From an uncultured Planctomycetia bacterium (GTDB lineage Bacteria > Omnitrophota > Gorgyraeia > 2-02-FULL-51-18), in contig CAZXLF010000001.1 of NCBI GenBank assembly GCA_964642015.1, positions 254,375 through 318,374 on the forward strand: a stretch of DNA of 64,000 nucleotides, read 5' to 3'. Each line of letters starts with the position of its first letter. Position 1 is the stretch's first letter. The notes below the pieces were generated by a model that saw only the letters and a list, made by a program, of their open reading frames with translations, was not told where the DNA came from and ran no database searches. Made by a program: the position numbers and the translations under genes. Positions 4,515-51,130 of this stretch are shown here, piece after piece.

Positions 4515-5489
4515 ATGAGTTTGTTGAATCTTTTCAGTTTCGAAAAAAAAGTGGATATGAGCAAACCTGTTGATGAAAAGGTGTGTGTGCAAAAAGCTAT
4601 TCAATGGGTGAGAAATAACCGCGTGCCTAACTCCGGCGTCAGACAGAGCCACAATCGAGAACTTATTACGCCGGAAGTAACCGGCTATTTGATCGACAGT
4701 CTGTATCGCATTGGCGAAAAAGAATTGGCTTATGATCTGGCGCGTTGGGAAGTGTCCATTCAGAAACCAAACGGCGCTTTCGGGGCTCCCGATGGTGTTG
4801 CTTACACGTTTGATACGGCTCAGGTGGCTCGGGGGTTCTTGTCGCTATTGGACGGCAAGCCTGAATTTGAAGCGCCGCTTCGCCGCGCCTGTGATTATGT
4901 GGATAAAATGATCGCCGCGGACGGAAATGTGACTCACGAAACCTATGACATGTGGTATCTGCCGGACGGCACGGTATTGTCAGAGTATGGGAATTTATAT
5001 GTGCTGCCACCGATGCTTCAAGCGGGAAAAAAATTGAATGAGCCCCGGTATACCGCTGCCGCCAAAAGAGGCATGGAATATTTCAGGAAAAAACCGGATC
5101 TTGTTGAGTTTAAATCCGAACTCGCGATGTTATCGCATTATTTCGGTTACATGATGGAAGCGCTCGTTGATCTGGGTGAGGTCGAGCTTGCGAAAAAAGG
5201 ACTGAAGCAGGCGCTGGCTGTTCAGCGAAAAGACGGATCGATCCCGGCGTATCCCGGTGTCAACTGGGTGTGCTCGACCGGCATGGCACAGCTGGCGATC
5301 GCGTGGTACAAACTTGGCGATCGTGAACCCGCGGACAAAGCGATGAATTATCTTTTCCGTCTTCAAAACCCAAGCGGTGGTTTTTACGGCGGATACGGCA
5401 AAGGCGCTGCATATTTTCCTGATGCTGAGATCAGTTGGGCAGTTAAATTTTTTCTTGATGCGGTCATGTTGAGGAACAAGGCGAAGTAA
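4515..5489 (+). CDS. hypothetical protein with prenyltransferase/squalene-cyclase-like (alpha/alpha toroid) repeats
   Basis: Three repeats of the Q-x-x-(D/N)G-(G/A/S)-(F/W/I) type: 'QKPNGAFGAPDGVAYTFDTAQ', 'QRKDGSIPAYPGVNWVCSTGMAQ', 'QNPSGGFYGGYG'. Strong RBS GGGGG upstream. Confidence 0.45.
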   Translation: MSLLNLFSFEKKVDMSKPVDEKVCVQKAIQWVRNNRVPNSGVRQSHNRELITPEVTGYLIDSLYRIGEKELAYDLARWEVSIQKPNGAFGAPDGVAYTFDTAQVARGFLSLLDGKPEFEAPLRRACDYVDKMIAADGNVTHETYDMWYLPDGTVLSEYGNLYVLPPMLQAGKKLNEPRYTAAAKRGMEYFRKKPDLVEFKSELAMLSHYFGYMMEALVDLGEVELAKKGLKQALAVQRKDGSIPAYPGVNWVCSTGMAQLAIAWYKLGDREPADKAMNYLFRLQNPSGGFYGGYGKGAAYFPDAEISWAVKFFLDAVMLRNKAK

Positions 5490-5493
5490 CATC

Positions 5494-6411
5494 ATGGAAA
5501 ACGATTCTTCCAAGGTCAGCATCATACTCCCGACTTACAACGGATCAAAACTGATCCGCCGGTCGATCGACAGCTGCCTTGCCCAGACACACAAGAATTT
5601 CGAATTGATCATTATTGACGATTGTTCGACTGATGATACGCCGTCGATCGTGAGATCTTATACGGATCCGCGTATCCATTATTTCCGTAATGAGAAAAAT
5701 CAGCGCTTGCCGCGATCTCTTAACATCGGTTTTGCAAAAGCTACTGGAGAATATCTAACCTGGACTTCAGATGATAATGAATACATGCTGGAGGCGATCG
5801 AAAAAATGCTTCGCATGTTCAGATCTGATCCGGAACTGGGATTTGTTTACGCGGATTTTTGGGCTTATTACGAAGATTCGGGCAAGAAGGAAGTTATCTC
5901 GCTGGGCAGTCTCGACCTGAAAGTAAGGAACCGTATCGGCGGTGCTTTTATGTATACGAGAAAAGTTTATGAAGCTATCGGGGATTACAATCCTTATTAC
6001 GAAATGGTGGAAGATTATGATTACTGGCTTAGGATCTTCAAAAGATTCAAAACAGCCAATCTCGCGGAGCCGGTCTATCTTTACCGTTATCATGCGCAGT
6101 CGCTGACAACGACGCGCCAGAATAACCAAGAACTTTTCGATATGATCTTGAAATACAGGAATGGTTATGTATCTTTGTCTAAACTGGGATGGACCGGTGC
6201 GTATTATCTTGAAAATATCACAAGATCCAACCGGCCGGCGGGAGAGAAAATAAAAATCCTTTTGCATGCTTGTTCGACGCTTTTTGGATTGTCCGTACCA
6301 TTTTTTTTATTGTTCATTTTTTTAACCATTTATTATTCCATTTACAAGAGCATCCGTTCATTTTTTGTCAGTACTTCGATTTTAAAAACACATCATAGGA
6401 GTTTGTTATGA
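5494..6411 (+). CDS. glycosyltransferase family 2 with C-terminal membrane segment
   Basis: 'VSIILPTYNGSKLIRRSIDSCLAQTHKNFELIIIDDCSTDDT' is a canonical GT2 N-terminus with a DxD region. The hydrophobic C-terminus suggests a membrane anchor. Confidence 0.8.
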   Translation: MENDSSKVSIILPTYNGSKLIRRSIDSCLAQTHKNFELIIIDDCSTDDTPSIVRSYTDPRIHYFRNEKNQRLPRSLNIGFAKATGEYLTWTSDDNEYMLEAIEKMLRMFRSDPELGFVYADFWAYYEDSGKKEVISLGSLDLKVRNRIGGAFMYTRKVYEAIGDYNPYYEMVEDYDYWLRIFKRFKTANLAEPVYLYRYHAQSLTTTRQNNQELFDMILKYRNGYVSLSKLGWTGAYYLENITRSNRPAGEKIKILLHACSTLFGLSVPFFLLFIFLTIYYSIYKSIRSFFVSTSILKTHHRSLL

Positions 6412-8593: not shown

Positions 8594-10164
8594 GAAAACA
8601 GATCTTGAGCAATCTTTCGAGCAATTATCTGCTGAGTTTTTTCGGCATGATTCTCGGTTTTTTTCTCGTGCCGTTCCTGATCGGGAAATTGGGGAAAGGT
8701 GTTTACGGTATCATTGTTCTCACCGAATCAACGATCGCTTTTTTTGAGATATTGACCGTTAGTGTGCGCATGGCATTGTCGCGCCACGCGACGTTTGCGC
8801 TGTCACAGGACAAACTTGATGAGTTTGCGGAATATCTTTCGACCGGGTTCAGGGTACTGTATTTTTCAGCGGCGCTTGTATTGATATCAGGCGTTACTCT
8901 GAGCTTGAATTTCCCGAATATTTTTAAGGTCCCCGAAGGTTATGTTTTTGAAAGTAAAGTGCATTTTTTGTTGATCGCGCTCGCTTTTACGGCCGCGATA
9001 CCGAATATCATTTACTGGTCGGGTCTTTATGCGAAACAGCGTTTTGATTTGATCAATTTTTCGACGTCATTCGGGCTTATCATGCGCGCGATCTGTATTT
9101 TTCTATATTATTCCCTGGCCCCGAAAAGATACGCGACGCTGATGCCTTATGGGTTCATTTACCTTGTGATGACTCTAACGCAAAATAGCATGATCTATTT
9201 TTGGTTCAAGAAGATCATCCCTGGCATCAAGATCAGCATGCGGCGTTTCAATCCCGCGAAGGTCAGAGAGATCCTTTCTTTCAGCGCACATACGTCGCTT
9301 ACGCGTGCCAGCGGACTCCTTTATGAGAACACCGCGAACATCATCATTAACATTTTGTGGGGACCTTCTTATAACGCGATCTATTCGGTGGCCCTGAAGC
9401 TGCCGAACATGCTGAGAAAGATCTTTGTGGAACCGACTTGGACTTTGACACCGACATTCACGGACCTGGCGGCCAAGCACGACACCAAAAAGATCGAGAA
9501 CATGCTGTACATGTTCTCCAAGTCGCTGGCGATATTCACTTATCCTATCCTTCTGGGTCTGATGACATTATCAAGCTCCATCATTACTTTATGGGTTGGG
9601 CCCGATTTTTTGATGGCCGCTAAATTGCTCCGCATGTATATTGTGCCGCTTTTTGTTTTCATCCCATTCGCACTTTCGGGTTGCATCTTCAACGCTTACG
9701 CAAAGATCAAGGTGCCCAGCTTCGTCAGTTTTGGAATGGCGCTTTCCAATGTGGCCTGCTGCCTTATTTTTGGATATTTATTTTCTTGGAAACTCTACGG
9801 CATTGCGTTGTCAGCTGTCCTGTCGACCGCGGTATCGTCCACGGTTTACCCGTGGTATTGCTGCCGTATCGCCAAACTTTCGTTAAAAAAATATTGGCTG
9901 GGTTCGATCCTGGGCCCTTTAGCGCTGCTTGGTGCGGTGGCAATTGTTAATTTCTCCATTTTCGAATTATTTCATATCCCCTGGAAACTCAATCTTTTTG
10001 TTTTTGCCGAATTCTCTTTAACCGCTTTGGCATATTATGCGCTTGCTTATAAATTCCTTTTGACGCCGCATGAAAAGCGCCACATAGGCGATATACGGCA
10101 GGCGGTCATGGGAAGATTGAATCCCAGAGCGCTTAAACCTTCAGCGGTGGTGGTGGAGCCATGA
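8590..10164 (+). CDS. Wzx-like polysaccharide flippase (MOP superfamily), copy 1
   Basis: 524 aa, ~12-14 predicted hydrophobic helices, N-terminus 'LSNLSSNYLLSFFGMILGFFLVPFLIGKLG' typical of the polysaccharide biosynthesis protein/Wzx family. Paralogous to 26579-28141. Confidence 0.75.
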   Translation: MRKQILSNLSSNYLLSFFGMILGFFLVPFLIGKLGKGVYGIIVLTESTIAFFEILTVSVRMALSRHATFALSQDKLDEFAEYLSTGFRVLYFSAALVLISGVTLSLNFPNIFKVPEGYVFESKVHFLLIALAFTAAIPNIIYWSGLYAKQRFDLINFSTSFGLIMRAICIFLYYSLAPKRYATLMPYGFIYLVMTLTQNSMIYFWFKKIIPGIKISMRRFNPAKVREILSFSAHTSLTRASGLLYENTANIIINILWGPSYNAIYSVALKLPNMLRKIFVEPTWTLTPTFTDLAAKHDTKKIENMLYMFSKSLAIFTYPILLGLMTLSSSIITLWVGPDFLMAAKLLRMYIVPLFVFIPFALSGCIFNAYAKIKVPSFVSFGMALSNVACCLIFGYLFSWKLYGIALSAVLSTAVSSTVYPWYCCRIAKLSLKKYWLGSILGPLALLGAVAIVNFSIFELFHIPWKLNLFVFAEFSLTALAYYALAYKFLLTPHEKRHIGDIRQAVMGRLNPRALKPSAVVVEP

Positions 10165-11156
10165 ATCCGAAGATCAGCGTTGTCATCCCGGTTTACAATG
10201 GCGAACGTTTTATCAAAAGGGCCGTTTGCAGCGTGCTGGGACAGGACTATAAAGCGCATGAGATCATTGTGATCGACGACGGTTCAGCCGATGGAACGTC
10301 CGCGATCTTAGAAGGTTTCAAAGACCGGGTCATCACCAAAAGGATCAAGAATGCCGGCGTTTCGAATGCAAGGAACGAAGGCATAAAACTTTCGACTGGA
10401 GATTATATTGCTTTTCTGGATGCGGATGATATCTGGTTCAGGCGTAAACTTAAGGCGCAAGTCGAGATGATGCAGAAATATCCCGAGATCGGGTTTTTTT
10501 GTTGTAATTATGTTCTGAGAGTTAAATACTTCGGCGATAGGCTGGTCAGGCATTTTTCAGGTCTGAAATATCAGAAGGACCTGAATTTCAACACACCGTC
10601 GGAAAAGCACCCTTTTCAGCTGCTTCTTCATGAACATTTTGTAGGCACTCCCTCAACCGTCGTTGTACGGCGAGATGTGATCGATAAGGTCGGGGGTTTT
10701 GATGTGCGGATCACGCATTGTGAAGATTACGATTTTTGGTTGCGATGCGCGACACAGACGAACTTTATTGTGATATCGGATGTCTTGCTTTATAAGAGAA
10801 AGCACGGACAGAATGCATCCAATGACATGATCCGATTGTACACTGCTTATAAAAAAGTGATCGTGGATACGATCGCCAATCACCGGGATTTTATTCAAGA
10901 GCACGTTTTTTGGCCATCCTGCCGTCGAGCGCTGGCCGAGATTACTTATTACTTAGGCGACCTCCATTTAGAAGCCGGGAAATATTCGGAGGCCTTTTCG
11001 TTGTATTTTAAAGGCTTTTTGGAAAAGAAAACGCCGTCCAATTTCTGTTTTTTTGTATGGCTTTCGTTTAAAAGATCGGTTCGAGCTTTGAAAGGAATGT
11101 TGACCAAAAATTCCTTACCTCAAACTTATCCGCTGAAGAATGGAGCGGTTCAATGA
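10161..11156 (+). CDS. glycosyltransferase family 2
   Basis: 'ISVVIPVYNGERFIKRAVCSVLGQDYKAHEIIVIDDGSADGT...FLDADDIW'. Paralog of 11153-12166 and 25488-26474. Confidence 0.8.
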   Translation: MNPKISVVIPVYNGERFIKRAVCSVLGQDYKAHEIIVIDDGSADGTSAILEGFKDRVITKRIKNAGVSNARNEGIKLSTGDYIAFLDADDIWFRRKLKAQVEMMQKYPEIGFFCCNYVLRVKYFGDRLVRHFSGLKYQKDLNFNTPSEKHPFQLLLHEHFVGTPSTVVVRRDVIDKVGGFDVRITHCEDYDFWLRCATQTNFIVISDVLLYKRKHGQNASNDMIRLYTAYKKVIVDTIANHRDFIQEHVFWPSCRRALAEITYYLGDLHLEAGKYSEAFSLYFKGFLEKKTPSNFCFFVWLSFKRSVRALKGMLTKNSLPQTYPLKNGAVQ

Positions 11157-12166
11157 ACAGCGCTTTGATAGATCCCAAGATCAGCGTGGTGATCCCGGTC
11201 TATAACGGCCAGACCTATATTCGGAAGACACTCGAGAGTGTGTTGGCTCAGGAATATCCAGCTCATGAGGTTATCGTGATCAACGACGGCTCTACGGACG
11301 GGACCCAAAGTGAACTTGATAGATTTGGAAGAAGAATAACCGTAAAGACCACGAGGAACGAAGGAGTTGCAGCCGCCAGAAATACCGGCATCGATCTGGC
11401 GACAGGAGAATATATTGCACTTCTGGATGCGGATGATATATGGTTCAAAATAAAATTAAAAAGTATCGTGGAGGCGATCAAGCGAAATCCTCAGGCAGGA
11501 TTTATTTGTTCTGACTATTTTGTGCGTCATCCTGAATTTGGCAACAAGATGCAGCGTCAATTCTGGATCCAACCCGGCATCGACCATTTTAATTTCGATG
11601 CACCTCTCAAGCGAAATCCTTTTGAAATGCTGCTTTTGTACGGCAATTTCGTCGGCACGCCGTCAGCCGTAGTTTTTAAAAAGGCGATCGCCAAAGAGTT
11701 CGGTTATTTTAAATCGCTCTTCAAGATCGTGGAAGATCTCTATTTTTTTCTTGGAATGGCGATGCGGACGTCTTACTTGATCATTGGCGAGCCGTTGTTC
11801 TACAAAAGAACGCATCATATGAACATGTCGAACGACAAGCTGAACACATACCTTGGTCATCGGGGAGTGCTTCAGTCGATCTTTGTCACCGAGAAGGCTT
11901 ATATAGAACGGCATCATCTGCAGCCGTCTTTCGGTGTGGCTTTGGCGAACATCAATTATGCCATTGGGAATATGTATTATGAATTCGGCGATAGGAACAG
12001 AGCTTTTGAGGCGTATCGTGAAGCACTTCGCAGCAGCGCGACACCAAAGAATATCCTGGATTATCTGTGGATCGTCTCCAAAAAATCGCTCAGGTCCGCG
12101 AGTCATAATAAAATAAGCCGAAGAAACTTTGGGTGGGATCGATTGAAAATGAAGCATAAGGCCTGA
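11153..12166 (+). CDS. glycosyltransferase family 2
   Basis: 'ISVVIPVYNGQTYIRKTLESVLAQEYPAHEVIVINDGSTDGT...LLDADDIW'. Confidence 0.8.
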   Translation: MNSALIDPKISVVIPVYNGQTYIRKTLESVLAQEYPAHEVIVINDGSTDGTQSELDRFGRRITVKTTRNEGVAAARNTGIDLATGEYIALLDADDIWFKIKLKSIVEAIKRNPQAGFICSDYFVRHPEFGNKMQRQFWIQPGIDHFNFDAPLKRNPFEMLLLYGNFVGTPSAVVFKKAIAKEFGYFKSLFKIVEDLYFFLGMAMRTSYLIIGEPLFYKRTHHMNMSNDKLNTYLGHRGVLQSIFVTEKAYIERHHLQPSFGVALANINYAIGNMYYEFGDRNRAFEAYREALRSSATPKNILDYLWIVSKKSLRSASHNKISRRNFGWDRLKMKHKA

Positions 12167-12182
12167 CCCGGAAAAGGTATCC

Positions 12183-16196: not shown

Positions 16197-16205
16197 GCGA
16201 CCGGT

Positions 16206-17171: not shown

Positions 17172-17172
17172 G

Positions 17173-23599: not shown

Positions 23600-24403
23600 A
23601 TGACGGATATCGAGTTTTTCAAAGAAAACGGTTATTTATTTCTTCAAAATTTCTTCTCCGAAGAGGAGATGTACACGCTTGAAGCATCGCTCAAAGAAGC
23701 CAAACCGCGTTTTCCGACCACACTCAATAAGAGCGGACTTGTGTTCTGTGAATTTGTCCATTTTCACAGCAAAGCACTTCAATCATTCATTGCAAGCGAA
23801 AAGATGGTGAATTTTTTGAAAGATTATATCGGGGATGATTTCTGGCTCCGCAAAGACCAGACCGTCACGAAATATCCGGGCGGCGAGGAATTTCCGTGGC
23901 ATCAAGACAATGCTTATAACAAATTGAAAGATGCGTATAACCAGTTTTGGGTCGCTTTGACCGACATGAGCCCTGAGAATGGCGGCTTGCGTCTTTTGGC
24001 CGGCACTCATAAAAGCGGCATATTACCTCACAAGCTTGTTGATAATCACTTGGCTTGGCAGGGGGATGATAAAAAAGAGATCATTATCCGGGCCAAGCGC
24101 GGAGATGTGCTCTTTTTTTCGTCGATGCTTCTGCATCGCACGGGCCCGAATCATACGCAGAATAACCGCGTCGCTTACGTGCTCGAATTCATGTCCAGCG
24201 AACATTTCGATCCTTATGTCCATCCGCCTTATTTTCAGGTCGTGAGGAACGGCCGGTCCGATCCAAAATTCATTAATTTCTACAAAGGCAACCTCTCGAT
24301 CAAAAATCAATGGGATTATCTGGGTCCCAGGATCAAACGCAAGAGCTGGCTGATCGAGACGGGTTTGAAGGATCGATTGAAAAAACTGCGGGCTAAGACG
24401 TGA
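23600..24403 (+). CDS. phytanoyl-CoA dioxygenase (PhyH) family Fe(II)/2-oxoglutarate-dependent oxygenase
   Basis: 'FPWHQDNAY' (H-x-D iron ligands) and the downstream 'LLHRTGPN' histidine/arginine region typical of PhyH-family enzymes. Confidence 0.7.
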   Translation: MTDIEFFKENGYLFLQNFFSEEEMYTLEASLKEAKPRFPTTLNKSGLVFCEFVHFHSKALQSFIASEKMVNFLKDYIGDDFWLRKDQTVTKYPGGEEFPWHQDNAYNKLKDAYNQFWVALTDMSPENGGLRLLAGTHKSGILPHKLVDNHLAWQGDDKKEIIIRAKRGDVLFFSSMLLHRTGPNHTQNNRVAYVLEFMSSEHFDPYVHPPYFQVVRNGRSDPKFINFYKGNLSIKNQWDYLGPRIKRKSWLIETGLKDRLKKLRAKT

Positions 24404-25491
24404 AAACATCAGCTGATCTTTTTTTGAGTTTGGAAAATGGTGATGGCGGTTTTCGTTTCTCGCCGGGATCTCCGGCTACGCTGGTGGCCACTTCTTACTG
24501 TGTGCTGGGTCTTGAATTCTCCGGAGCACTTGAGAAAATGGACCATTCAAAAAAGTCAAAGATAGCTTCTTTTATTCTCTCAGGCGCTACAAAGGACGGC
24601 TATTTCCGCGATAAACTTTTTAACCAGAAAGATGTGATGAGTTCCGAGCACGATCCGGCTTATTTCGAAGACGAAACTACCGCGTTTTGTTTACAGGCGC
24701 TCGATGCGCTGAAATCGGGGCCGGTATCTGCACTTGAACTGCCCGCGCGATGGGCAAACGCCGAAGCGCTGGTCTCATATTTAAATTCGCTGCCTTGGAA
24801 GAATCCATGGCTTGATTCCAACCGCGTGATGTTCGCGCTGAGCCGTCTTTGTTATGAAGCCGAAAAAGGCCAAACTCAGCACTTAGCAAGTGTAGATAAA
24901 GCGCTTGATTGGCTGGATACACAGCAGGACAAGATCACAGGATTATGGCGCGGCCGAGAAAACGCGGAACTGAACAATGCGATGGCCGCTACAGTGCACT
25001 TCACTTTTTTTTATGCTTACCGTAAAAGATCAATACAGTTCGCCGATAAGATAATCGACAGCTGTCTTTCTCTGCAGGCTTCGCATGGTTTGTTCGACAA
25101 ATGGACCGTGGGGCATACGTGTTTTGATTACGATGCGGTCCAGCTTCTGGATACGGCAAGCAGGCAGTCTGACCATCGCAAAAAAGAAGTTCATGATGCT
25201 TTGAGCCGGGCCGCCAGAGCGACACGTGCGCTTCAAAATGAGGATGGAGGATTTGCCGATGCCAAAATGAGGGTGCGGCGTTTTCTTGGCAGACCGTTAC
25301 CGCTTTTTTTGTCCCAAAAGATCGTTGATGAGCGTTATAATAATTGCTGGAAACATCTGTCATGCCGGTCAGTTGAAAGCAATGCCTATTCGACGTGGCT
25401 GCGATCGATTATTCTTTTTTTAGCGGATGGCCGACCAAAGAACGGACATTCATTCCGGCGATTACCGTTCTTGGGATATATACCTCCATGA
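24400..25491 (+). CDS. hypothetical protein with prenyltransferase/squalene-cyclase-like repeats
   Basis: 'ENGDGGFRFSPGSPATLVATSYCVLGL', 'QASHGLFDKWTVGHTCFDYDAVQ', 'QNEDGGFADAK': same repeat style as 4515-5489. Confidence 0.4.
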   Translation: MKTSADLFLSLENGDGGFRFSPGSPATLVATSYCVLGLEFSGALEKMDHSKKSKIASFILSGATKDGYFRDKLFNQKDVMSSEHDPAYFEDETTAFCLQALDALKSGPVSALELPARWANAEALVSYLNSLPWKNPWLDSNRVMFALSRLCYEAEKGQTQHLASVDKALDWLDTQQDKITGLWRGRENAELNNAMAATVHFTFFYAYRKRSIQFADKIIDSCLSLQASHGLFDKWTVGHTCFDYDAVQLLDTASRQSDHRKKEVHDALSRAARATRALQNEDGGFADAKMRVRRFLGRPLPLFLSQKIVDERYNNCWKHLSCRSVESNAYSTWLRSIILFLADGRPKNGHSFRRLPFLGYIPP

Positions 25492-26474
25492 GCGAACCTA
25501 AGATCAGTGTTGTGATACCGGTTTATAACAGCGCCGATTTTTTTGCACGTACGCTGGAGTGTGTCCTGAGGCAGACGAGTCCCGCACACGAGATCGTCGT
25601 GATCAACGACGGTTCCACGGACAATACTCAGGAGCTCTTGGACCGATACAAGGGCAGGATCGTCACAAAGACCATTAAAAATTCCGGCTGTGCCGCCGCG
25701 CGCAATGAAGGTGTCCGTATCGCGACGGGGGATGTCATCGCGTTCCTGGATGGCGATGATCTTTGGTTCCGCAAAAAACTGAAAGTGGTCATGAAATATC
25801 TTAAACGCTATCCTGACATCGACTTTTTCTGCAGTAATTACCTGGTTTATTCGGAATATCACGGCCGCATTGTCCGCCATTATGAAAATTTAGCGAATGC
25901 GGATGATTTTAATTTCGATGAACCGCTGCGTAGGTTGCCTTTTAAATTGCTATTAGAAAGTAACTTTGTCGGCACTCCTTCGACCGTCGTGGTGAGGAAG
26001 AGATTTTTTGAAAAGACGGGGGGTTTTGATCCCAGCTGCAAGATCGTGGAGGATCTGGATTATTTTTTCCGAGCCGCCGCCCGGTCGAATTTCGTGCTGA
26101 TCCATGATGTACTGCTCTACAAGCACAACCATGCCGAGAACATGTCCCACAATAAGATCAAATTGTACGAAGGCCACAAGCGTGTTTTTAACCGATGCAT
26201 CACCGGCGAACGTGAATTCATTTCAAACCGTCATCTAAAAAGAGACGTTGATCTGGGCTTGGCGAATATCAATTACATCCTTGGGAGATTGTATTTTGAA
26301 ACAGGACAAAGGAAACACGCTTATAAATTGTTCTGGGAGGCTTTCAAAGCGGCGATCTATCCGTCCAATTTTTTTCAGTTCATTTGGGAGACTTCAAAAA
26401 AAACAGCCCGAGTCCTCACCGGCAACGCGATCAGCAAAAAGAATCTGAAGCGGGCCCTGCATAGCGCCCATTGA
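25488..26474 (+). CDS. glycosyltransferase family 2
   Basis: 'ISVVIPVYNSADFFARTLECVLRQTSPAHEIVVINDGSTDNT...FLDGDDLW'. Third member of the paralog set with 10161 and 11153. Start at ATG 25488. Confidence 0.8.
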   Translation: MSEPKISVVIPVYNSADFFARTLECVLRQTSPAHEIVVINDGSTDNTQELLDRYKGRIVTKTIKNSGCAAARNEGVRIATGDVIAFLDGDDLWFRKKLKVVMKYLKRYPDIDFFCSNYLVYSEYHGRIVRHYENLANADDFNFDEPLRRLPFKLLLESNFVGTPSTVVVRKRFFEKTGGFDPSCKIVEDLDYFFRAAARSNFVLIHDVLLYKHNHAENMSHNKIKLYEGHKRVFNRCITGEREFISNRHLKRDVDLGLANINYILGRLYFETGQRKHAYKLFWEAFKAAIYPSNFFQFIWETSKKTARVLTGNAISKKNLKRALHSAH

Positions 26475-38925: not shown

Positions 38926-38992
38926 AAAATCAAAAGTCAAAACCGCAACTTAAAACGCAAAATGTTTTTGTTTGTTTTGACTTTTGATCTTT
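38926..38992. repeat. inverted repeat in the divergent intergenic region
   Basis: 'atcaaaagtcaaaac' (38929-38943) is the reverse complement of 'gttttgacttttgat' (38974-38988), a 15-bp stem with a ~30-nt spacer. The repeated 'gtcaaaac' motif also occurs at 38915. Confidence 0.4.
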
Positions 38993-39135
38993 AACTTTTG
39001 AGTTTTTAGTCACCGTATTATAGTTGTATATACAAAAGTATTATGCTACAATGACCCCTTTCGATTTAATCCCAAACCGGGTTTTCGTAGGGCTATCTGA
39101 TCAGAGAAGTGTTAAAAAACAAAAAGGACCATGAG

Positions 39136-39351: not shown

Positions 39352-39356
39352 TCTTT

Positions 39357-41178: not shown

Positions 41179-41193
41179 AAGAAAGGGAGCAAC

Positions 41194-41865
41194 ATGGAAG
41201 AAATTATGGAGCTGGATCTGAACAAGCCGGGAAGTATAGGGGAAAAGTCTTTCAATATTTTATGGGAAAAAATAAAAAGTTTAGCGGCAAAAAATATATT
41301 GGAATTCGGAAGCGGTGTAAGCTCGATCAGAATGGCTAGAGCTTTCCCGGAGACGAACATCGTCTCGATCGACCATGACCTTAAGTATTATAGGAAGACG
41401 CATACCTTGAAACGGAAATATTGTCCCGGTTCCAATTTGAACATCCTGTTTTCACCGCTTCGATATCAATGGTCGAGCGGAAGTCTGTTCTTGAGTTATG
41501 CCAAAAATAAATTTAGCGGGATCTTTGATTGTGTGATCATCGATGGCCCTCAAAGCTGGCTAACCCTTAGGGGCAGGGAAGTTTGTTTGTATAAGGTCTA
41601 CGAAAATTTAAGGATTGGTGCAGTGGTGGTACTGGACGATTATTCAAGAGAGGAAGAAAAGACCGTTCTCAAAAACTGGCTTTTGACCTATCCCGGCAGT
41701 TTTAGAGTGGACGTTGTCGAGGAAGGTCATCATCTGGTTTTTTTGACAAAGGTAAAGCAGGTAAAGCCGCGTTATTTTTGCTGGTCGAAGTTTATCGACA
41801 ACCTGCAGACAAATATACATTTGTTTTTAAGATCATTTAAAAGAAGGTTTATTCCAGCGCATTAA
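41194..41865 (+). CDS. putative class I SAM-dependent (O-)methyltransferase
   Basis: 'NILEFGSGVSSIRMA' glycine-rich motif I followed by 'VVLDDY' acidic motif. The assignment is weak. Confidence 0.4.
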   Translation: MEEIMELDLNKPGSIGEKSFNILWEKIKSLAAKNILEFGSGVSSIRMARAFPETNIVSIDHDLKYYRKTHTLKRKYCPGSNLNILFSPLRYQWSSGSLFLSYAKNKFSGIFDCVIIDGPQSWLTLRGREVCLYKVYENLRIGAVVVLDDYSREEEKTVLKNWLLTYPGSFRVDVVEEGHHLVFLTKVKQVKPRYFCWSKFIDNLQTNIHLFLRSFKRRFIPAH

Positions 41866-41871
41866 CAAACT

Positions 41872-44205
41872 ATGGATCTAAAACAAAAAACGATAAAAGG
41901 CTTGAGCTGGTCATTTGCCTCTCAAGCAGCCAGACAGGTCAGCCAATTTGCGGTGACCGTCATCCTGGCGCGCTTATTGATGCCCGACGATTTTGGACTG
42001 GTGGGAATGGCGACCGTTTTCACCGGATTCATTTCAGCGGTCAATGAGATCGGTGTAAGCGGAGCTCTAATCCAAAGGCAGCAAGTGGACGAAAGCCATT
42101 ATAGTTCGGTTTTTTGGCTGAACATTTTTCTGGGAACGGCATTTACAGCCTTATTCATTGCCGTGTCTCCGGCGATCGCGGCATTTTACAACAAACCCGA
42201 ACTCATCTCTATTTTAAGGATCAGCGCTTTTAATTTTATTTTGGCAGCATTTTCCATCGTGCAAAGAGCTATTTTCCAAAAACATATGGAATTTAAAAAG
42301 CTTGCCGTGATCGAAACTTTGGCGATCGTTATAGGGGGTGTCGTCGGAATCGTCATGGCTTACCGCGGATTTGGTGCATGGAGTTTGGTCTACCAAATGA
42401 TCGCATTCACGCTGGCCAATACGGTTTTGTTGTGGCTGTTTTCCCACTGGAGACCACGGTTTATTTTTTCCATCTCTTCGATCAAAGATATATTCGGTTT
42501 CAGCGCGCATGTGACGGGATTTACTGTCATGAATTACTTCGCCAGGAACGTGGATTATCTTTTGATTGGTAAATTTTTGGGCGCAGAATCGCTAGGTTAT
42601 TACACCTTGGCCTATAAACTAATGCTCTATCCTTTGCAGAACGTTACTTGGACCATACAAAAAGTAATGTTTCCGGCGTTTTCAGTTATCCAAAATGACA
42701 TCGCGAAGGTCAAGAACGCCTATTTAAAGATGATAAAAAGCATATCGATCACAGTGTTTCCGATGATGTTCGGTCTTTTTGCGCTGGCGCCTGAATTGAT
42801 CGACGCCGTTTACGGAGCCAAATGGCTGCCTTCGGTGATCGTTATCAGGATTTTTTGTTTTTGCGGAATGATCCAGTGCCTTTCGAGTACGGCGGGCACT
42901 ATTTATCAATCTCAAGGCCGTTCGGATATCCAATTTAAGATAGGTTTTCTCGGATCTTTGGGGGCTGTTTTATCTATTATTTTAGGACTTCGCTGGGGCA
43001 TTGAAGGAGTAGCGGCCTGTTATACTGCCTATTCCATTCTGTGGGGATTTTATTCACTGTACATCGTAGAAAGATTGATCAGTTTAAAGAAAAAAGATTT
43101 TTATTTATTATTCGCCAAGATATTCCTGATCTCATCGGGCATGTTCCTTTTTACGTTGTATCTCAAGAGTATTTTAAGAATTCATGGCTGGCCGGAATTA
43201 ATGATTGTCATGACAGCGGCAGCCACTGTTTATGTTTTTTTGTTGCTTGTTTTTAAACAAATCGGTTATCAAAATATGGATCATGTTTTGAATGGTAAGA
43301 AACAAAATACCAAAGTTGCGCCCAATTTCTTTTGTGTAGGCACAAAGAAAGGTGGCACGACGACTTTGCAGGATATTTTAGTACAGCACCCAGATATTTA
43401 TTTGCCCAAGGTAAAAGAGACAAAATTTTTTGCAATCGAAGAAAAATACTCCAAAGGAATTGAGTATTACAAAAAAGAGTATTTCTCAAGATGTAATGGT
43501 CAAAAAGCGGTAGGAGAAATTGATCCCGCTTATATGTTCGTCCCTTATGCCCCTTCAAGGATCCACAAAGCTTTAGGAGATGAGATAAAGATTATTTTCC
43601 TTCTGCGAAATCCGGTTGACCGAGCTTATTCTCATTATCTGATGAATTACCGTTGGGGTATCGAGAGTAGATTATTCGAAGAAGCGATAGAAGCTCCCGA
43701 GATCGTGCCAAGCGAAGGATTGTCGTTGGACGATTTTTCAAACAAATATAATTTCTGTTATAGGGAAACTGGTTATTATGCAAAACAGATATCCGCCTAT
43801 TTAAAGTTCCTCAAAAGATCCAATATGATCTTTTTTGTTTTTGAAGAGGATATTAAATCAAATATCCGATCGACTATTGAGTCTATAGAGAAGTTTCTTG
43901 GGATCAGGCACGTTGAATTGAACTTTAATAAAATAAGCAACCCTGCAAGTATGCCTAGATTTAGGATCATCAGGGATTTTACGAGAAAAACAAATATCGT
44001 AAGAAAAATAGGCAAACACTTTTTCCCATCTCAATCCTTACGATATAGGATCCTTATGAGAATAGATGAAATGAATCAAGTTGAAATCAAGCCAAAACCT
44101 TTGGATAGTTCATTCAAAAAATATCTACTAGACAAATATTACAAAGAAGAGGTCAAGGCATTGGAAGTCATTTTGAACAGAAATTTAAGCGTTTGGATGG
44201 AATAA
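41872..44205 (+). CDS. fusion protein: Wzx/MOP-type polysaccharide flippase (aa ~1-460) and PAPS-dependent sulfotransferase domain (aa ~470-777)
   Basis: N-terminus has ~12 hydrophobic helices with a Wzx-like start 'LSWSFASQAARQVSQFAVTVILARLL'. The C-terminal domain has the sulfotransferase 5'-PSB loop 'FCVGTKKGGTTTL' and 3'-PB motif 'LLRNPVDRAYSHY'. Confidence 0.75.
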   Translation: MDLKQKTIKGLSWSFASQAARQVSQFAVTVILARLLMPDDFGLVGMATVFTGFISAVNEIGVSGALIQRQQVDESHYSSVFWLNIFLGTAFTALFIAVSPAIAAFYNKPELISILRISAFNFILAAFSIVQRAIFQKHMEFKKLAVIETLAIVIGGVVGIVMAYRGFGAWSLVYQMIAFTLANTVLLWLFSHWRPRFIFSISSIKDIFGFSAHVTGFTVMNYFARNVDYLLIGKFLGAESLGYYTLAYKLMLYPLQNVTWTIQKVMFPAFSVIQNDIAKVKNAYLKMIKSISITVFPMMFGLFALAPELIDAVYGAKWLPSVIVIRIFCFCGMIQCLSSTAGTIYQSQGRSDIQFKIGFLGSLGAVLSIILGLRWGIEGVAACYTAYSILWGFYSLYIVERLISLKKKDFYLLFAKIFLISSGMFLFTLYLKSILRIHGWPELMIVMTAAATVYVFLLLVFKQIGYQNMDHVLNGKKQNTKVAPNFFCVGTKKGGTTTLQDILVQHPDIYLPKVKETKFFAIEEKYSKGIEYYKKEYFSRCNGQKAVGEIDPAYMFVPYAPSRIHKALGDEIKIIFLLRNPVDRAYSHYLMNYRWGIESRLFEEAIEAPEIVPSEGLSLDDFSNKYNFCYRETGYYAKQISAYLKFLKRSNMIFFVFEEDIKSNIRSTIESIEKFLGIRHVELNFNKISNPASMPRFRIIRDFTRKTNIVRKIGKHFFPSQSLRYRILMRIDEMNQVEIKPKPLDSSFKKYLLDKYYKEEVKALEVILNRNLSVWME

Positions 44206-44225
44206 GAACCCAAGAAATTTAGAAC

Positions 44226-47850: not shown

Positions 47851-49030
47851 ATTAGAACTTAAAAACGAGAACATCATTTGCTTTGCCGGTGAAGATTGGT
47901 GGTATCACAATCCGCATTCCAATTTTCACATCATGAAATCCTTCGCCAAAGAGAACCGTGTACTTTTTGTGAATTCGATCGGTGTAAGTGCGCCCAACAT
48001 GAATGATAAGTATGTCTGGAAAAGGATAGGGAATAAGATCAAGAGTCTTGCACGTTATTTAAAAAAAGTCGAAAAAAATATCTATGTGCTTTCGCCGATA
48101 GCCTTGCCTCTTATTAAAGGTCATGAAAAAATAGTCCAGCGGTTCAATAAATTTTTGATTTTGCTTCAAATGAAAGTTATTTTAAAAATAATTCGATTTG
48201 AAAAACCTATTCTTTGGGTATGTGCTCCTTCATTTGCTGATGTTGCCCTGGCTTTAAAAAAACGGGCGAAGTGCTTGATCTATTATTGTGTCGATAACAT
48301 TACTTTTTATAGCGGAGAAATGAATCCATACATTTTGGATCTCGAGATCAAATTGCATTCTAATGCGGATGCCGCTTTGTTTGTCAACCATCGGCTTGTG
48401 GAAGAAAGAAAGAAATTTAACCCTAAAACTTACCATATAGGACATGGAGTGGATTATGACCATTATGCGGTATGCCAAAATGGCCATCTGTCTATACCTT
48501 CTGATATGGAGGAGATAAAGGCTCCGATCGTGGGATATATAGGTGTTATTCGCGGAGTGAACCTTGAGCTGGTAAAGTTTTTGGCGGACAAAAATCAAGA
48601 CGTCTCATTTGTATTCATTGGCGACATTCAACAGGACATTTCAAGTCTTAAAGATATCGGGAATGTCCATTTTTTAGGCCGAAGAGAATACAGGTTATTA
48701 CCGCAATATATGCAAAAAATGTCTTGTTTCGGGATTTTTTATCAGATCAATGATGTATTTAACAATTACAGAAATCCGAAGAAGCTTCTGGAATATTTTG
48801 CATCCGGAAAGCCTATTGTATCAGTTCCGATATTGGAGCTAGAGTATTTTAAAGAACTTGTTTACATCGCTGAGAATTATGAGGCGTTCGACCATTTTAT
48901 AAAAAAAGCATTGTACAACGATAGCCCGGAATTAAGGAAAATGCGCATTCAATTTGCCAAAGAGCATACCTGGGATGTTATTTCGAGCGAGTCCTCACAA
49001 TATATTTTTCAAGCGATAAAGGGGACATGA
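47837..49030 (+). CDS. putative GT-B fold glycosyltransferase (divergent)
   Basis: No strong signature. C-terminal 'YRNPKKLLEYFASGKPIVS' resembles the GT1/GT4 nucleotide-sugar binding helix. Context only. Confidence 0.4.
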   Translation: MQNAELELKNENIICFAGEDWWYHNPHSNFHIMKSFAKENRVLFVNSIGVSAPNMNDKYVWKRIGNKIKSLARYLKKVEKNIYVLSPIALPLIKGHEKIVQRFNKFLILLQMKVILKIIRFEKPILWVCAPSFADVALALKKRAKCLIYYCVDNITFYSGEMNPYILDLEIKLHSNADAALFVNHRLVEERKKFNPKTYHIGHGVDYDHYAVCQNGHLSIPSDMEEIKAPIVGYIGVIRGVNLELVKFLADKNQDVSFVFIGDIQQDISSLKDIGNVHFLGRREYRLLPQYMQKMSCFGIFYQINDVFNNYRNPKKLLEYFASGKPIVSVPILELEYFKELVYIAENYEAFDHFIKKALYNDSPELRKMRIQFAKEHTWDVISSESSQYIFQAIKGT

Positions 49031-49908
49031 TGGAACGGCTGGAGAGCGTCAAGAGTTTTTGGAATTCAAATCCATGTGGGAGTCGGTCATCGGATGACCA
49101 GAACAGATCAAATTATTTCAAGGAGGTCGCTTCTAAGAGATATGACGCAGAATTTCATATTCCTGAAATAGCTAAATTTGAGAATTTTAAGGATCGCGAT
49201 GTTTTAGAAATAGGTTGCGGATTAGGGACTGACGGCCTTCAATTTGCGAAAGCGGGAGCCCGCTATGTAGGCGTGGATCTGACCCCGGCAGCTGTCAGCT
49301 TATCCAAAGAGCATTTCAGTCTTTTTAATATTAACGGAATATTTTTTGAGGTTAATGCTGAAAAGCTGCCTTTTCCAGATAATAATTTTGATCATGTTTA
49401 CAGTTTTGGCGTTATACATCATTCCCCCGATATTGAAGCGATCGTCAGAGAGATATACCGTGTTCTCAAGCCAAACGGGACGTTTTGCATTATGATTTAT
49501 AACAAATCATCTATTAATTATTACCTGGAAATAATGTTCTTTAGAAAGATCTTTAAGCGCCTGCTTTATCCCGCATTTATGCCTTCATTCTTGTCAAAAT
49601 GTTTCGGCTTTAGCAAGGATAAATTGGAAGAACATAGGAAAATTCTGTGGAATGCTAAGAAAATCTCAAAGGAAAAATGGATCAGCATCAATACCGATGG
49701 GCCTAATTGTCCGTTGGCAAGAGTGTACAACAAGGAGGAAGCGTTTGAGCTTTTTAGAAAATTTGAAGACATAAGAAGCGAAGTCCGTTTCTTTGACAAA
49801 TCTCACTGGCCTCTCTTGAGGAACTTGTTGCCAAAATCCGCGGTATCATGGCTCGGAAATCGCTGGGGATGGCACAGAATGGTGTATGGAAAAAAACCTT
49901 CTTATTGA
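49027..49908 (+). CDS. class I SAM-dependent methyltransferase (Methyltransf_11-like)
   Basis: 'DVLEIGCGLGTDGLQFAKAGARYVGVDL' motif I, 'FDHVYSFGVIHH' motif II/III region. Confidence 0.75.
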   Translation: MMERLESVKSFWNSNPCGSRSSDDQNRSNYFKEVASKRYDAEFHIPEIAKFENFKDRDVLEIGCGLGTDGLQFAKAGARYVGVDLTPAAVSLSKEHFSLFNINGIFFEVNAEKLPFPDNNFDHVYSFGVIHHSPDIEAIVREIYRVLKPNGTFCIMIYNKSSINYYLEIMFFRKIFKRLLYPAFMPSFLSKCFGFSKDKLEEHRKILWNAKKISKEKWISINTDGPNCPLARVYNKEEAFELFRKFEDIRSEVRFFDKSHWPLLRNLLPKSAVSWLGNRWGWHRMVYGKKPSY

Positions 49909-51130
49909 TAAAGACTTTAAGGTCGATATAACCGATCAAAGTTATTTACGGCCTATGATCGATTCTTTCTTGGGATGGCTTGATAAAAACGGCTATGCCG
50001 GCTATGACGCGTATGATCTGTGGGCTACGCGATACGGAATTTTTTCAAGGAAGATCTATTACAAGAACAAATTTTTATCCGCGCCTTTTGTTGCGCCGGT
50101 CGTATTGGCGGAGATGCTTTGCCCTGGCTTGAGCCGTTTGTTTTTACGGAGGCACCGCTTTGCGATCGCTGACGCGCATTTTATCTTGGGTTATCTAAAT
50201 CTTTTTTCGGCGACGAAAGAAGAGCGATATCTTAAAGAAGCGACCAAGCTTTCGGATGAATTATTGGGCCAAAGCGTCAGCGGGTATTCCGGCATATGCT
50301 GGGGCTATCCATTTGACTGGCAAAATAACCGCGGGCTCTGGAAAAAGGGAACGCCTTTTGTCACCGTAACGCCTTATGGCATGGAAGCGATGCTTGCGCT
50401 ATATGATGCGACAAAGGATAAAAAATATCTGGATCAAGCGCTTTCAAGCGCACAGTTCATTTTGAAAGATATCCGTGATACCAAAACCTCGGATGACGCG
50501 TCGGCATGCTCTTATTCGCCGCTGGATGAAAGCAAAGTCGTGAACGCGAGCGCTTACCGCGCTTTTGCGCTTACGGAAGCGTTCCATAGATCCCAGCAAA
50601 AAGAATTTCAGGAAAAAGCGCTGAGGAATCTCAATTTTGTGCTTCAAAGTCAAAAACCCGACGGTTCATGGCTTTATGCCGAAGGCAATTCGCAGGATGC
50701 TTTCATAGATAATTTTCATACTTGTTTTGTGCTGAAAAATCTCTGCAAGCTGAACCGGCATCTAAAAAGCGCGGATGTAGAAGGTGCGATCATTAAGGGT
50801 TATGGATATTATAGGAAGCAGCTGTTCGATAAGAGCGGGGAGCCCAAACCTTTTGCTGGAACAAAGAGCGGCCAATTCGTGAGGTATGAGTTGTACGATT
50901 TTGCCGAAGCGATCACATTGGGGACTCTATTAAAAGAAAAAGTATTAGGAGCTTTTGAATTGTCAAAAACGTTAGCAGAAAAGGTGATGAAAAATTACCA
51001 GCTTCGTGACGGACATTTTGTCACGCGTGTTTATAAGTCGGGCACCAAAAACTCCGTACCTTATATCCGCTGGCCTCAAGCGCAGATGTTTTATGCACTG
51101 ACCAGCCTTTTAAAGGAAGTGAGCGGCTGA
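49886..51130 (+). CDS. hypothetical protein, possible alpha/alpha-toroid fold
   Basis: 'QKPDGSWLYAEGNSQDAFIDNFHTCFVL' repeat reminiscent of the 4515 and 24400 proteins, and 'ICWGYPFDWQN'. No confident family assignment. Confidence 0.35.
   Translation: MEKNLLIDKDFKVDITDQSYLRPMIDSFLGWLDKNGYAGYDAYDLWATRYGIFSRKIYYKNKFLSAPFVAPVVLAEMLCPGLSRLFLRRHRFAIADAHFILGYLNLFSATKEERYLKEATKLSDELLGQSVSGYSGICWGYPFDWQNNRGLWKKGTPFVTVTPYGMEAMLALYDATKDKKYLDQALSSAQFILKDIRDTKTSDDASACSYSPLDESKVVNASAYRAFALTEAFHRSQQKEFQEKALRNLNFVLQSQKPDGSWLYAEGNSQDAFIDNFHTCFVLKNLCKLNRHLKSADVEGAIIKGYGYYRKQLFDKSGEPKPFAGTKSGQFVRYELYDFAEAITLGTLLKEKVLGAFELSKTLAEKVMKNYQLRDGHFVTRVYKSGTKNSVPYIRWPQAQMFYALTSLLKEVSG

Follow-up and report, generated by a model that had tools for sequence, protein, structure and literature searches.

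Candidate carbohydrate-acting toroid proteins of three apparently separate, widespread families in three polysaccharide gene clusters of an uncultured Omnitrophota bacterium

Introduction

Polysaccharide gene clusters are usually read as sets of sugar-nucleotide enzymes, glycosyltransferases, a flippase, a polymerase and export proteins. Here, we analysed a 64,000-nucleotide stretch of DNA (the window; contig CAZXLF010000001.1 of assembly GCA_964642015.1, positions 254,375 to 318,374) from an uncultured Planctomycetia bacterium, assigned by GTDB to the Omnitrophota, in which three genes encode predicted alpha/alpha-toroid proteins with a repeat in the style of terpenoid cyclases and prenyltransferase beta-subunits. 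We call these proteins A, B and C, in their order along the window (Table 1).

Several described enzymes invite comparison. In the beta-subunit of protein farnesyltransferase (FTase), the zinc ligands follow the order D-x-C...H, and the zinc sites of prenyltransferase beta-subunits, LanC and glycoside hydrolase family 127 (GH127) share a ligand chemistry of the His/Cys(+acid) kind. Enzymes of the N-acylglucosamine 2-epimerase (AGE) type place a pair of catalytic histidines on opposite sides of the sugar, and cyclic beta-1,2-glucan synthase joins a glycosyltransferase domain to (alpha/alpha)6 domains that process the glycan and determine its chain length.

The solved structure closest to A is that of MmpH, the methylmannose-polysaccharide endo-alpha-(1->4)-mannosidase of Mycobacterium hassiacum (PDB 7QSJ), which has its catalytic acid D47/D50 and base E262 in a central cleft (PMC9883506). 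MmpH is a single-domain, cytoplasmic (alpha/alpha)6 barrel of 345 amino acids, is encoded together with sugar methyltransferases and the mannosyltransferase ManT, of glycosyltransferase family 4 (GT4), and processes nascent or mature cytoplasmic glycan of the intracellular storage type. Monodomain class II terpene cyclases of ~350 amino acids also exist (PMC12414744). Polymerase-terminators of ABC-transporter-dependent O-antigen assembly, such as WbdA/WbdD and ORF6 of Klebsiella O4/O7, combine a methyltransferase and a glycosyltransferase with a non-glycosyltransferase middle module; those described contain coiled-coil rulers and in one case a carbohydrate-binding module (CBM), and none contains a toroid (PMC3482155, PMC11231755). 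Finally, the amidotransferases WbpS, WbqG and PGN_1234 convert uronic acids to uronamides (PMC7468200). The literature search returned neither toroid or prenyltransferase-like proteins in polysaccharide clusters nor toroid modules in terminator systems.

We give a probability of about 60% to the reading that the three clusters of the window each carry one toroid from a different, widespread and functionally uncharacterised family, that the three proteins are non-paralogous, and that they serve as accessory, carbohydrate-acting modules. The sugar-handling role rests on fold, conserved residues and gene context, and is more likely than a role as terpene enzymes.

Results

Three toroid proteins in three polysaccharide gene clusters

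Pfam and NCBIfam scans of about 50 open reading frames (ORFs) revealed three separate polysaccharide gene clusters on the plus strand of the window, each with one toroid gene and its own flippase; two also contain a polymerase (Table 1). The toroid genes adjoin their neighbours closely, with gaps of at most 9 nt or short overlaps. The original prediction had placed three genes for cytoplasmic proteins here, and the three ORFs were recovered exactly, all on the plus strand. By a Kyte-Doolittle scan, A and B are free of signal peptides and membrane segments. C lacks a signal peptide and has one marginal hydrophobic stretch, which is a barrel helix in its AlphaFold2 model. In the absence of a signal peptide or convincing transmembrane segment, A, B and C are soluble cytoplasmic proteins, as had been proposed.

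Repeats of the Q-x-x-DG type had been ascribed to all three proteins. The strict motif Q-x(2,3)-[DNS]-G-[GSA]-[FWIY] occurs three times in A (QKPNGAF, QRKDGSI, QNPSGGF) and once each in B (QNEDGGF) and C (QKPDGSW), where shuffling gives an expectation of ~0.01 per protein, and it has no copy in the remaining 17,110 residues of window proteins. A looser motif was found in three copies each in A and B (P ~0.003–0.006) and in a single copy in C, which is not above chance. The repeat is therefore pronounced in A and B but weak in C. The Q-x-x-DG-x-(F/W) motif that is common to the three proteins is a structural hallmark of hairpin repeats in proteins of this fold class.

The toroid fold itself, likewise part of the original prediction, was borne out by AlphaFold2 models and Foldseek searches for A and C (models built on 102- and 119-sequence alignments, respectively); for B it is predicted from a Pfam match. 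Sequence-profile matches to the PDB were weak (E ~1e-2 to 1e-3) and led to squalene-hopene cyclase (SHC) for A, FTase beta for B and GH76/cellobiose 2-epimerase for C. No NCBIfam model was found for A, B or C.

Pairwise BLASTP between the proteins returned short motif matches only (E = 0.6 for A–B, 0.04 for A–C and 0.11 for B–C). Alignment of the family profiles with hhalign gave probabilities of 15% for A–B, 8% for A–C and 0.8% for B–C, and deeper, more diverse alignments gave 5.6% for A–B and 1.5% for B–C. Each protein has closer relatives in other phyla than within its own genome (41–84% identity for A, 47–60% for B and 38–58% for C). Because significant BLASTP or profile similarity is absent and each protein is far closer to its relatives in other organisms, the three genes, which lie in three different polysaccharide clusters, do not form the triplication that had been suggested, and a recent duplication as their origin is largely refuted. 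By sequence comparison, A, B and C appear to be three separate, non-paralogous families in which the fold recurs, not the gene. The original suggestion of a lineage-specific family came close, in that the families are uncharacterised; none could be assigned to an ordinary characterised family. All three are widespread.

In the non-significant hhalign alignment, A and B are collinear over 256 columns, with H200 of B on H208 of A and C241 of B on C253 of A. The alignment hints that A and B descend from a distant common ancestor and share a His/Cys(+acid) site, which we regard as a lead and not as a result.

The earlier view that such proteins have no obvious role gives way to a picture of conserved partnerships, which emerged from a gene-neighbourhood survey in related genomes. 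A is accompanied by a glycosyltransferase of family 2 (GT2), WecB, a fusion of DegT-type aminotransferase and Gfo/Idh/MocA oxidoreductase (DegT-GFO) and a methyltransferase; B occurs in fusions with GT2 and methyltransferase modules; and C is found with a WbpS-like amidotransferase.

Table 1. Position of the clusters, toroid genes, partner genes and other features in the window
Feature	Position	Strand	Evidence and context
Cluster i	285 to ~23491	+	Pfam/NCBIfam
Cluster ii	23600 to ~33402	+	Pfam/NCBIfam
Cluster iii	39357 to ~55695	+	Pfam/NCBIfam
Protein A, soluble single-domain (alpha/alpha)6 toroid, 324 aa, ATG start	4515..5489	+	ORF, Pfam, AlphaFold2, Foldseek
Protein B, predicted prenyltransferase/squalene-oxidase-repeat toroid, 363 aa, GTG start	24400..25491	+	ORF, Pfam Prenyltrans
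Protein C, (alpha/alpha)6 barrel of the six-hairpin clan, 414 aa, ATG start	49886..51130	+	ORF, AlphaFold2, Foldseek
DegT-type aminotransferase + Gfo/Idh/MocA oxidoreductase fusion, 769 aa	2196..4505	+	Pfam, NCBIfam; ends 9 nt before A
GT2 glycosyltransferase, TuaG/EpsE-like	5494..6411	+	Pfam, NCBIfam; starts 4 nt after A
WecB, non-hydrolysing UDP-GlcNAc 2-epimerase	57965..59125	+	Pfam; TIGR00236, 495 bits
PhyH-family Fe(II)/2-oxoglutarate dioxygenase	23600..24403	+	Pfam; stop overlaps B start by 4 nt (translationally coupled)
GT2 glycosyltransferase	25488..26474	+	Pfam; overlaps B stop by 4 nt
Class I S-adenosylmethionine-dependent methyltransferase	49027..49908	+	Pfam; overlaps C start by 23 nt
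AsnB-type glutamine amidotransferase (WbpS / eps_aminotran_1-like)	51132..53039	+	Pfam; starts 1 nt after C stop
Tandem GT2 genes of cluster i	10161-11156 and 11153-12166	+	
ORFs inside glycan clusters	12183-13436 and 41194-41865	+	No Pfam/NCBIfam match
BNR/Asp-box sortilin-Vps10-type beta-propeller, 749 aa	21242-23491	+	One N-terminal hydrophobic segment; ends cluster i
Two large proteins, 613 and 840 aa	34190-36031 and 36157-38679	-	Signal-peptide-like N-termini; no Pfam/NCBIfam match
APS kinase and CysQ-like phosphatase	39737-40405 and 40366-41178	+	Upstream of flippase-sulfotransferase fusion
Wzx-type flippase (Polysacc_synt_3) fused to a sulfotransferase domain	41872-44205	+	
Exosortase EpsH and EpsI-like DUF3485 protein	54125-55695	+	
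Papain-family protease	56168-56911		Between EpsH/EpsI-like genes and PEP-CTERM protein gene
Secreted protein with PEP-CTERM sorting signal (..VNPEPVSS-hydrophobic-QQRK)	57127-57873	+	

Protein A and its gene partners

The AlphaFold2 model of A (pLDDT 94.1) consists of twelve helices in six hairpins. In Foldseek against the PDB, MmpH (7qsj) ranked first of 1160 matches (E = 8.6e-11, probability 1.00, TM-scores 0.74/0.70), followed by the single-domain SHC-like proteins 8paj/8pak (E = 1e-8), SHC, drimenyl-diphosphate synthase, GH88/GH105 enzymes and a polysaccharide lyase; MstE was also among the matches. A thus resembles MmpH as a cytoplasmic barrel of similar size whose gene lies with methyltransferase and glycosyltransferase genes. 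It differs in sequence, with 17% identity and a His/Cys pair, conserved in at least 98% of family members, that is not described for MmpH. It also differs in its partners (GT2, WecB and DegT-GFO, where MmpH has a GT4) and in its occurrence in the export pathways of the Wzx/Wzy and ATP-binding cassette (ABC) transporter type.

With class II terpene cyclases (SHC, MstE, 8PAJ/8PAK; Foldseek ranks 3–13), A shares the toroid and QW-like repeats. The Pfam model SQHop_cyclase_C (PF13243) matched with 26.7 bits against a cut-off of 26.1, over ~70 residues only, and the full class II cyclase models scored far below threshold (TIGR01507, 19.8 bits, cut-off 431; TIGR01787, 19.5 bits, cut-off 323). Unlike these cyclases, A and its family have no DxDD or DxD proton-donor motif, the sole conserved Asp in a DTA-like context being that of F99-D100-T101-A102. 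Moreover, the family always lies in glycan loci and its conserved pocket residues are polar. E54, D100, H208, C253, E305, K311 and many aromatic residues are kept in at least 98% of 63 diverse members, and more than 30 positions, Glu, Asp, His, Cys and Lys included, reach this level. In the model, E54, D100, H208, C253 and E305 occupy the N-termini of helices 2, 4, 8, 10 and 12 or the positions just ahead of them, one per hairpin. Because they occupy the N-termini of alternate helices, they would lie on one face of the barrel, the usual pocket site of (alpha/alpha)6 enzymes.

The family counts 973 homologues, the lowest identity among the 120 listed being 57%. A scan of one genome per species yielded 133 relatives, the best 80 of which were used as loci. 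They come from Planctomycetes (80% identity), Acidobacteriota, Armatimonadota, Chloroflexota, Nitrospirota, Omnitrophota, beta-, gamma- and delta-proteobacteria, Verrucomicrobia and Firmicutes, and from two archaeal metagenome-assembled genomes, Methanoperedens and a nanoarchaeon. Conservation of this degree is unusual in a protein of glycan loci. The matches in Thiobacillus, Rubrivivax and Methylocaldum also come from metagenome-assembled genomes, that in Phosphitispora sp. TUW77 from the genome of an isolate. Partner genes were counted by targeted tblastn and by an unbiased ORF-clustering survey over 81 loci.

The most conserved partner is the GT2 downstream of A. A homologue was found within 3 kb downstream in 60 of 70 loci, 46 homologues were at least 38% identical, and ORF clustering placed this GT2 in 57 loci. 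A WecB homologue lies downstream of A in 39 other loci (median distance +20 nt, within 300 nt in 23). The WecB gene of the window, to which the cluster representative is 50% identical, is displaced from A by ~52 kb. The DegT-GFO fusion was found upstream of A in 20–26 of ~72 loci, within 300 nt in 15 of 20, and is kept in Acidobacteriota, Planctomycetes, Omnitrophota, the nanoarchaeon and others; it stands directly upstream in loci L003 and L005, and the loci with the fusion include an acidobacterial ABC-transporter locus. Since its oxidoreductase half is nearest to UDP-GlcNAc 3-dehydrogenase by NCBIfam, the module plausibly makes a 3-amino sugar. A class I methyltransferase gene directly follows A in 13 loci, and in ~22 loci, and in 18 of the 120 homologues listed, the two are fused, with A N-terminal and the methyltransferase C-terminal by BLAST. 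Together, these genes form a conserved module, [DegT-Gfo/Idh/MocA] - A - [class I methyltransferase, often as C-terminal fusion] - [WecB] - GT2, which occurs in both Wzx/Wzy and ABC-transporter pathways.

Phosphitispora sp. TUW77 has the gene order Wzm, Wzt (with a Wzt_C domain), pyruvyl-transferase-like protein, WbdD-like kinase-methyltransferase, A-methyltransferase fusion, GT2, GT4, GT4. The WbdD-like protein, a fusion of a protein-kinase fold and a methyltransferase (L083, 4490-6004), is encoded directly upstream of the A-methyltransferase fusion, and Wzt_C is a glycan-end-binding domain. This setting recalls the polymerase-terminators of ABC-transporter pathways.

We also considered the GT2 adjoining A as a membrane-anchored polyprenyl-phosphate sugar synthase of the GtrB/ArnC kind, which would have favoured a role at the lipid carrier. 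The window protein has one C-terminal hydrophobic segment; since only 2 of 46 orthologues have a similar segment and TuaG/EpsE are the nearest NCBIfam models, this reading was rejected. Across the 81 A loci and seven genomic contexts of B, no isoprenoid, hopanoid or meroterpenoid genes were found, the neighbours being glycosyltransferases, sugar-nucleotide enzymes, methyltransferases and transporters.

Protein B and its fusions

B matches Pfam PF00432 (Prenyltrans) with 33.4 bits against a cut-off of 26.5, over residues 6-78 only, and most of its homologues carry precomputed matches to this model. From the PF00432 match, B is predicted to be an alpha/alpha toroid; its best PDB sequence matches are FTase beta (E ~0.01). 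An exhaustive profile search (E <= 1e-3) collected 921 clusters at 50% identity, and the relatives of 47–60% identity are mostly cyanobacterial.

About 37 of the top 150 clusters have a length of at least 500 amino acids. When 20 of these long relatives were scanned against Pfam, 19 proved to be fusions to GT2, methyltransferase or GT4 modules: B-GT2 in eight, methyltransferase-B-GT2 in five, methyltransferase-B or B-methyltransferase in four, GT4-B in one, and methyltransferase-B-GT2-GT2-GT4 (1648 aa) in one. The B domain thus recurs in polypeptides that also contain GT2, class I methyltransferase or GT4 modules. One B-GT2 representative, P0197, comes from a truncated 2.4 kb contig and is unreliable on its own, and the fusion type was confirmed with full-length representatives. 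The methyltransferase and GT2 modules fused to B are not orthologues of those associated with A; this candidate link was rejected, as the similarity is generic only (25–33%).

Four relatives (P0346, P0369, P0376 and P0430) are giant B-domain polypeptides of 1648-1734 aa, of which P0346, the sole one scanned, is the methyltransferase-B-GT2-GT2-GT4 protein. The giant polypeptides look like complete polymerase-terminator machines with a toroid module. The B fusions share with polymerase-terminators the combination of methyltransferase, glycosyltransferase and a non-glycosyltransferase middle module, which in the described terminators is not a toroid; the toroids of the window, for their part, are stand-alone proteins in Wzx/Wzy-type clusters.

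A GT2 gene is adjacent to B, or one gene off, in all seven genomic contexts examined, and the GT2 next to B in the window is likely its working partner. All seven contexts belong to glycan loci; both the Wzx/Wzy and the ABC type are represented, and sulfotransferases are frequent. A PhyH protein 53% identical to that of the window is encoded next to the B homologue in L007, the closest relative examined, and is absent from the other five B contexts. The GT2 adjoining B in the window is 46% identical to the tandem GT2 genes of cluster i, which suggests that GT2 genes have been duplicated or exchanged between clusters, though the toroid genes are unrelated.

Across a diverse alignment of 71 B sequences (23–47% identity), only G181, H200, C241 and D243 are invariant. 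B contains C241-x-D243-x-D245, at another chain position than the cyclase acid motif, with only D243 invariant. In common with the beta-subunits of protein farnesyl- and geranylgeranyltransferases, B has the PF00432 match and invariant His, Cys and Asp, the residue types of zinc ligands. In contrast to them, its match covers ~70 residues, the ligand order is H...C-x-D, the family is fused to GT2 and methyltransferase modules in glycan loci, and no prenyltransferase alpha-subunit gene lies next to B in the neighbourhoods searched, those of the window and six other contexts.

Protein C and its amidotransferase partner

Pfam returned only short, marginal matches for C, at or below threshold, to Pec_lyase, GlcNAc_2-epim, C5-epim_C, GH88, GH9, GH127 and GH76. 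The AGE-type model PF07221 scored 24.2 bits against a cut-off of 23.4, over 34 residues only, and C5-epim_C (PF06662) 18.4 bits, below its cut-off of 23.3 (E = 0.0016). The AlphaFold2 model (pLDDT 93.7) shows 12 or more helices in hairpins, and the top Foldseek matches were glucose and cellobiose 2-epimerases and GH76 mannanases (E ~1e-7, query-normalised TM-score 0.54–0.63). With these enzymes C shares the (alpha/alpha)6 barrel and aromatic and polar residues at helix N-termini. The likeness is modest, with TM-scores of 0.54–0.68 (either chain), 11–14% identity and family-model scores that are at most marginal. Where AGE enzymes use a His pair, C has only one conserved His (H278) among 75 family members, and C has the conserved partnership with an AsnB-type amidotransferase described below.

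The search found 1797 homologues at ~50–58% identity, many from Verrucomicrobiota. Residues kept in at least 98% of the 75 members include D41, W139, Y141, W145, N220, Y224, D275, H278, E341, R395 and W396. Tyr, Trp, Arg, Asn, Asp, His and Glu at helix N-termini predominate among the conserved residues, which as placed in the model fit the binding of an acidic sugar. One relative, P0247 (610 aa), had been a candidate fusion and was rejected, as it is C with a low-complexity insertion.

A metagenome scan gave more than 564 relatives of C, and 80 loci were retained. Their most frequent neighbour is an AsnB-type amidotransferase: of the 66 loci whose sequence extends 600 nt or more downstream of C, 34 (52%) encode it directly downstream on the same strand and 39 anywhere in the locus. 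The top NCBIfam match of the window amidotransferase is TIGR03108 (XrtA/PEP-CTERM system amidotransferase), with 520.6 bits, below the cut-off of 816.9; WbpS, WbqG and PGN_1234 are members of this family. C thus pairs with a WbpS-type amidotransferase. Other recurrent neighbours are GT2-like proteins (17 loci), UDP-sugar dehydrogenases (14) and short-chain dehydrogenase/reductase (SDR) epimerases (11). Genes for the synthesis of 3'-phosphoadenosine 5'-phosphosulfate (PAPS) adjoin C in L010, L093 and the window.

Genomic setting

Cluster i encodes a methyltransferase, a GT4, the DegT-GFO fusion, A, GT2, an SDR protein, a second GT4 and Wzx, followed by several GT2 proteins, a pyruvyl transferase, an acetyltransferase, Wzy, WecG and the BNR/sortilin-repeat protein. 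A homologue of this last protein, a beta-propeller, is also encoded upstream of PhyH-B in locus L001. Two ORFs inside the glycan clusters lack a family match; the 417-aa one has a homologue, 25% identical, in the planctomycete A locus L011.

Cluster ii contains PhyH, B, GT2, Wzx, an initiating Bac_transf phosphoglycosyltransferase, GT4, Wza and Wzz. Between clusters ii and iii, the only minus-strand genes are those for the two large proteins with signal-peptide-like N-termini.

Cluster iii begins with an acetyltransferase, adenosine 5'-phosphosulfate (APS) kinase, the CysQ-like phosphatase, the Wzx-sulfotransferase fusion, two GT4 proteins and Wzy, and continues with a TuaH-like protein, the methyltransferase, C, the AsnB-type amidotransferase, WecG, exosortase EpsH and the EpsI-like protein. 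Because the flippase-sulfotransferase fusion is preceded by APS kinase and the CysQ-like phosphatase, the cluster probably makes a sulfated exopolysaccharide (EPS). The locus is of the XrtA/PEP-CTERM type. Beyond it follow the genes for the papain-family protease and the secreted PEP-CTERM protein.

Discussion

In the reading that we prefer, the substrates of A, B and C would be not terpenoids but sugars or the growing lipid-linked glycan at the cytoplasmic face. A glycan or sugar is favoured over the polyprenyl carrier by the polar nature of the invariant pockets, by the structural neighbours and by the lack of isoprenoid genes. Most likely, A and B would bind or process the growing chain end beside the glycosyltransferase and an end-modifying methyltransferase, for instance by trimming, transglycosylation, length control or acceptor presentation, comparable to MmpH on methylated mannan, possibly through a His/Cys(+acid) site common to both. 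Further precedents are the polymerase-terminators and cyclic beta-1,2-glucan synthase. The likeliest role of C would be to bind or isomerise a uronic-acid-containing sugar, from which the neighbouring amidotransferase would then make the uronamide.

Several observations weigh against this reading. The MmpH match of A is only 17% identical with a TM-score of 0.74, and single-domain 'squalene-hopene cyclases' follow close behind (E = 1e-8). Every glycan locus is rich in GT2 and methyltransferase genes, which makes mere adjacency a weak argument; the fusions and the orthology of A's GT2 partner are the stronger points. The window pathway is of the Wzx/Wzy type, in which cytoplasmic capping or length control is less obviously relevant than in ABC-transporter pathways. 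The pairing of C with the AsnB-type amidotransferase holds in only about half of the loci, and the methyltransferase next to C is not conserved, being present in 0 of 59 other loci. The His/Cys coincidence between A and B, finally, rests on a statistically non-significant alignment.

More tentatively, and with clearly less confidence than in the carbohydrate-acting role as such, A and B may be remote relatives within an undescribed class of His/Cys, possibly zinc-dependent, toroid enzymes that are integral to, or dock with, GT2/methyltransferase glycan-assembly machines in Bacteria and Archaea. These would perform a step outside current pathway models, for instance cytoplasmic trimming or transglycosylation to set chain length or prime synthesis, or a new sugar modification; C and the WbpS-type amidotransferase would then be a second undescribed, two-component unit for uronamide or related residues.

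It is unlikely, though less so for B, that A and/or B instead act on the polyprenyl carrier, as prenyl-binding or prenyl-modifying toroids that serve the adjacent GT2 by holding or modifying undecaprenyl-(pyro)phosphate. All substrates of these pathways are polyprenyl-linked, the Pfam/NCBIfam matches are to Prenyltrans and SQHop_cyclase, and the PDB sequence matches are to FTase beta and SHC. The Foldseek matches of A to single-domain SHC-like proteins, drimenyl-diphosphate synthase and MstE also agree with such a role, as do the invariant His, Cys and Asp of B, which are the ligand types of the zinc site of prenyltransferase beta-subunits. However, A lacks the DxDD/DxD acid motif, neither a prenyltransferase alpha subunit nor an isoprenoid gene was present in any neighbourhood, the conserved residues are largely polar or charged, and the proteins are soluble and without a membrane anchor. 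The GT2 orthologues that accompany A mostly lack transmembrane segments, so they are not polyprenyl-phosphate sugar synthases.

We likewise doubt that the toroids are non-catalytic domains that bind glycan or act as scaffolds to organise the glycosyltransferase, methyltransferase or amidotransferase. The ruler and CBM modules documented in terminator proteins (PMC11231755, PMC3482155) offer a precedent, and the position of B in the middle of the methyltransferase-B-GT2 polypeptide and the fusion of A to a methyltransferase would suit such a function. The extreme conservation of A, which extends to Glu, Asp, His, Cys and Lys, and the fact that three of only four invariant positions in B are His, Cys and Asp speak against it; this invariant His/Cys/acid pattern in A and B points to an active or metal site rather than a scaffold.

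For C, we consider it improbable that the protein is a uronate C5-epimerase or lyase-type enzyme on a uronic-acid-containing, possibly sulfated polymer, like heparosan C5-epimerase. Such an activity would accord with the weak C5-epim_C match and the Pec_lyase match, with the APS kinase, CysQ-like phosphatase and flippase-sulfotransferase fusion encoded in cluster iii, and with the UDP-sugar dehydrogenase and PAPS genes near C elsewhere; R225, R395, Y224, H278 and N220, conserved in at least 90% of members, would fit carboxylate-directed chemistry. Yet the Pfam matches are all short and at or below threshold, no such enzyme occurred among the 50 Foldseek matches listed except for one polysaccharide lyase at rank 28, and the PDB sequence search found no glucuronyl C5-epimerase up to E = 10. 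C is moreover cytoplasmic, whereas the epimerases and lyases known to work on polymers are enzymes of the periplasm or Golgi.

That A, B and C are paralogues, born from the triplication of one ancestral gene whose function was needed three times, is very improbable: for all their common fold class and repeat motif, their Pfam matches to alpha/alpha-toroid families and the collinearity of A and B over ~250 columns with His and Cys aligned, they show no significant sequence or profile similarity, are each closer to other-phylum relatives than to the toroids of their own genome, have different partner genes and differ in their structural neighbours, C being nearer to sugar epimerases and GH76, and A to MmpH and SHC-like proteins.

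Neither the fold nor the concept of (alpha/alpha)6 enzymes as accessories of glycan pathways is new. The literature searched contained none of the three families, their partnerships or the B-domain fusions, which are a lead to unassigned enzymology, not a new kind of system. A, B and C belong to very widespread accessory families without an assigned function, which together amount to hundreds to thousands of database clusters, and their partner genes and fusions yield two hypotheses, a toroid with GT2 and an end-modifying methyltransferase, and a toroid with a uronamide-forming amidotransferase. If the toroids were merely structural, the finding would be of modest interest. If they are catalytic, they would represent new enzymology for the assembly of O-antigen, EPS and S-layer glycans, and would allow a better annotation of the 'prenyltransferase/squalene oxidase repeat' proteins, which are numerous and carry names that wrongly point to terpenoid metabolism.

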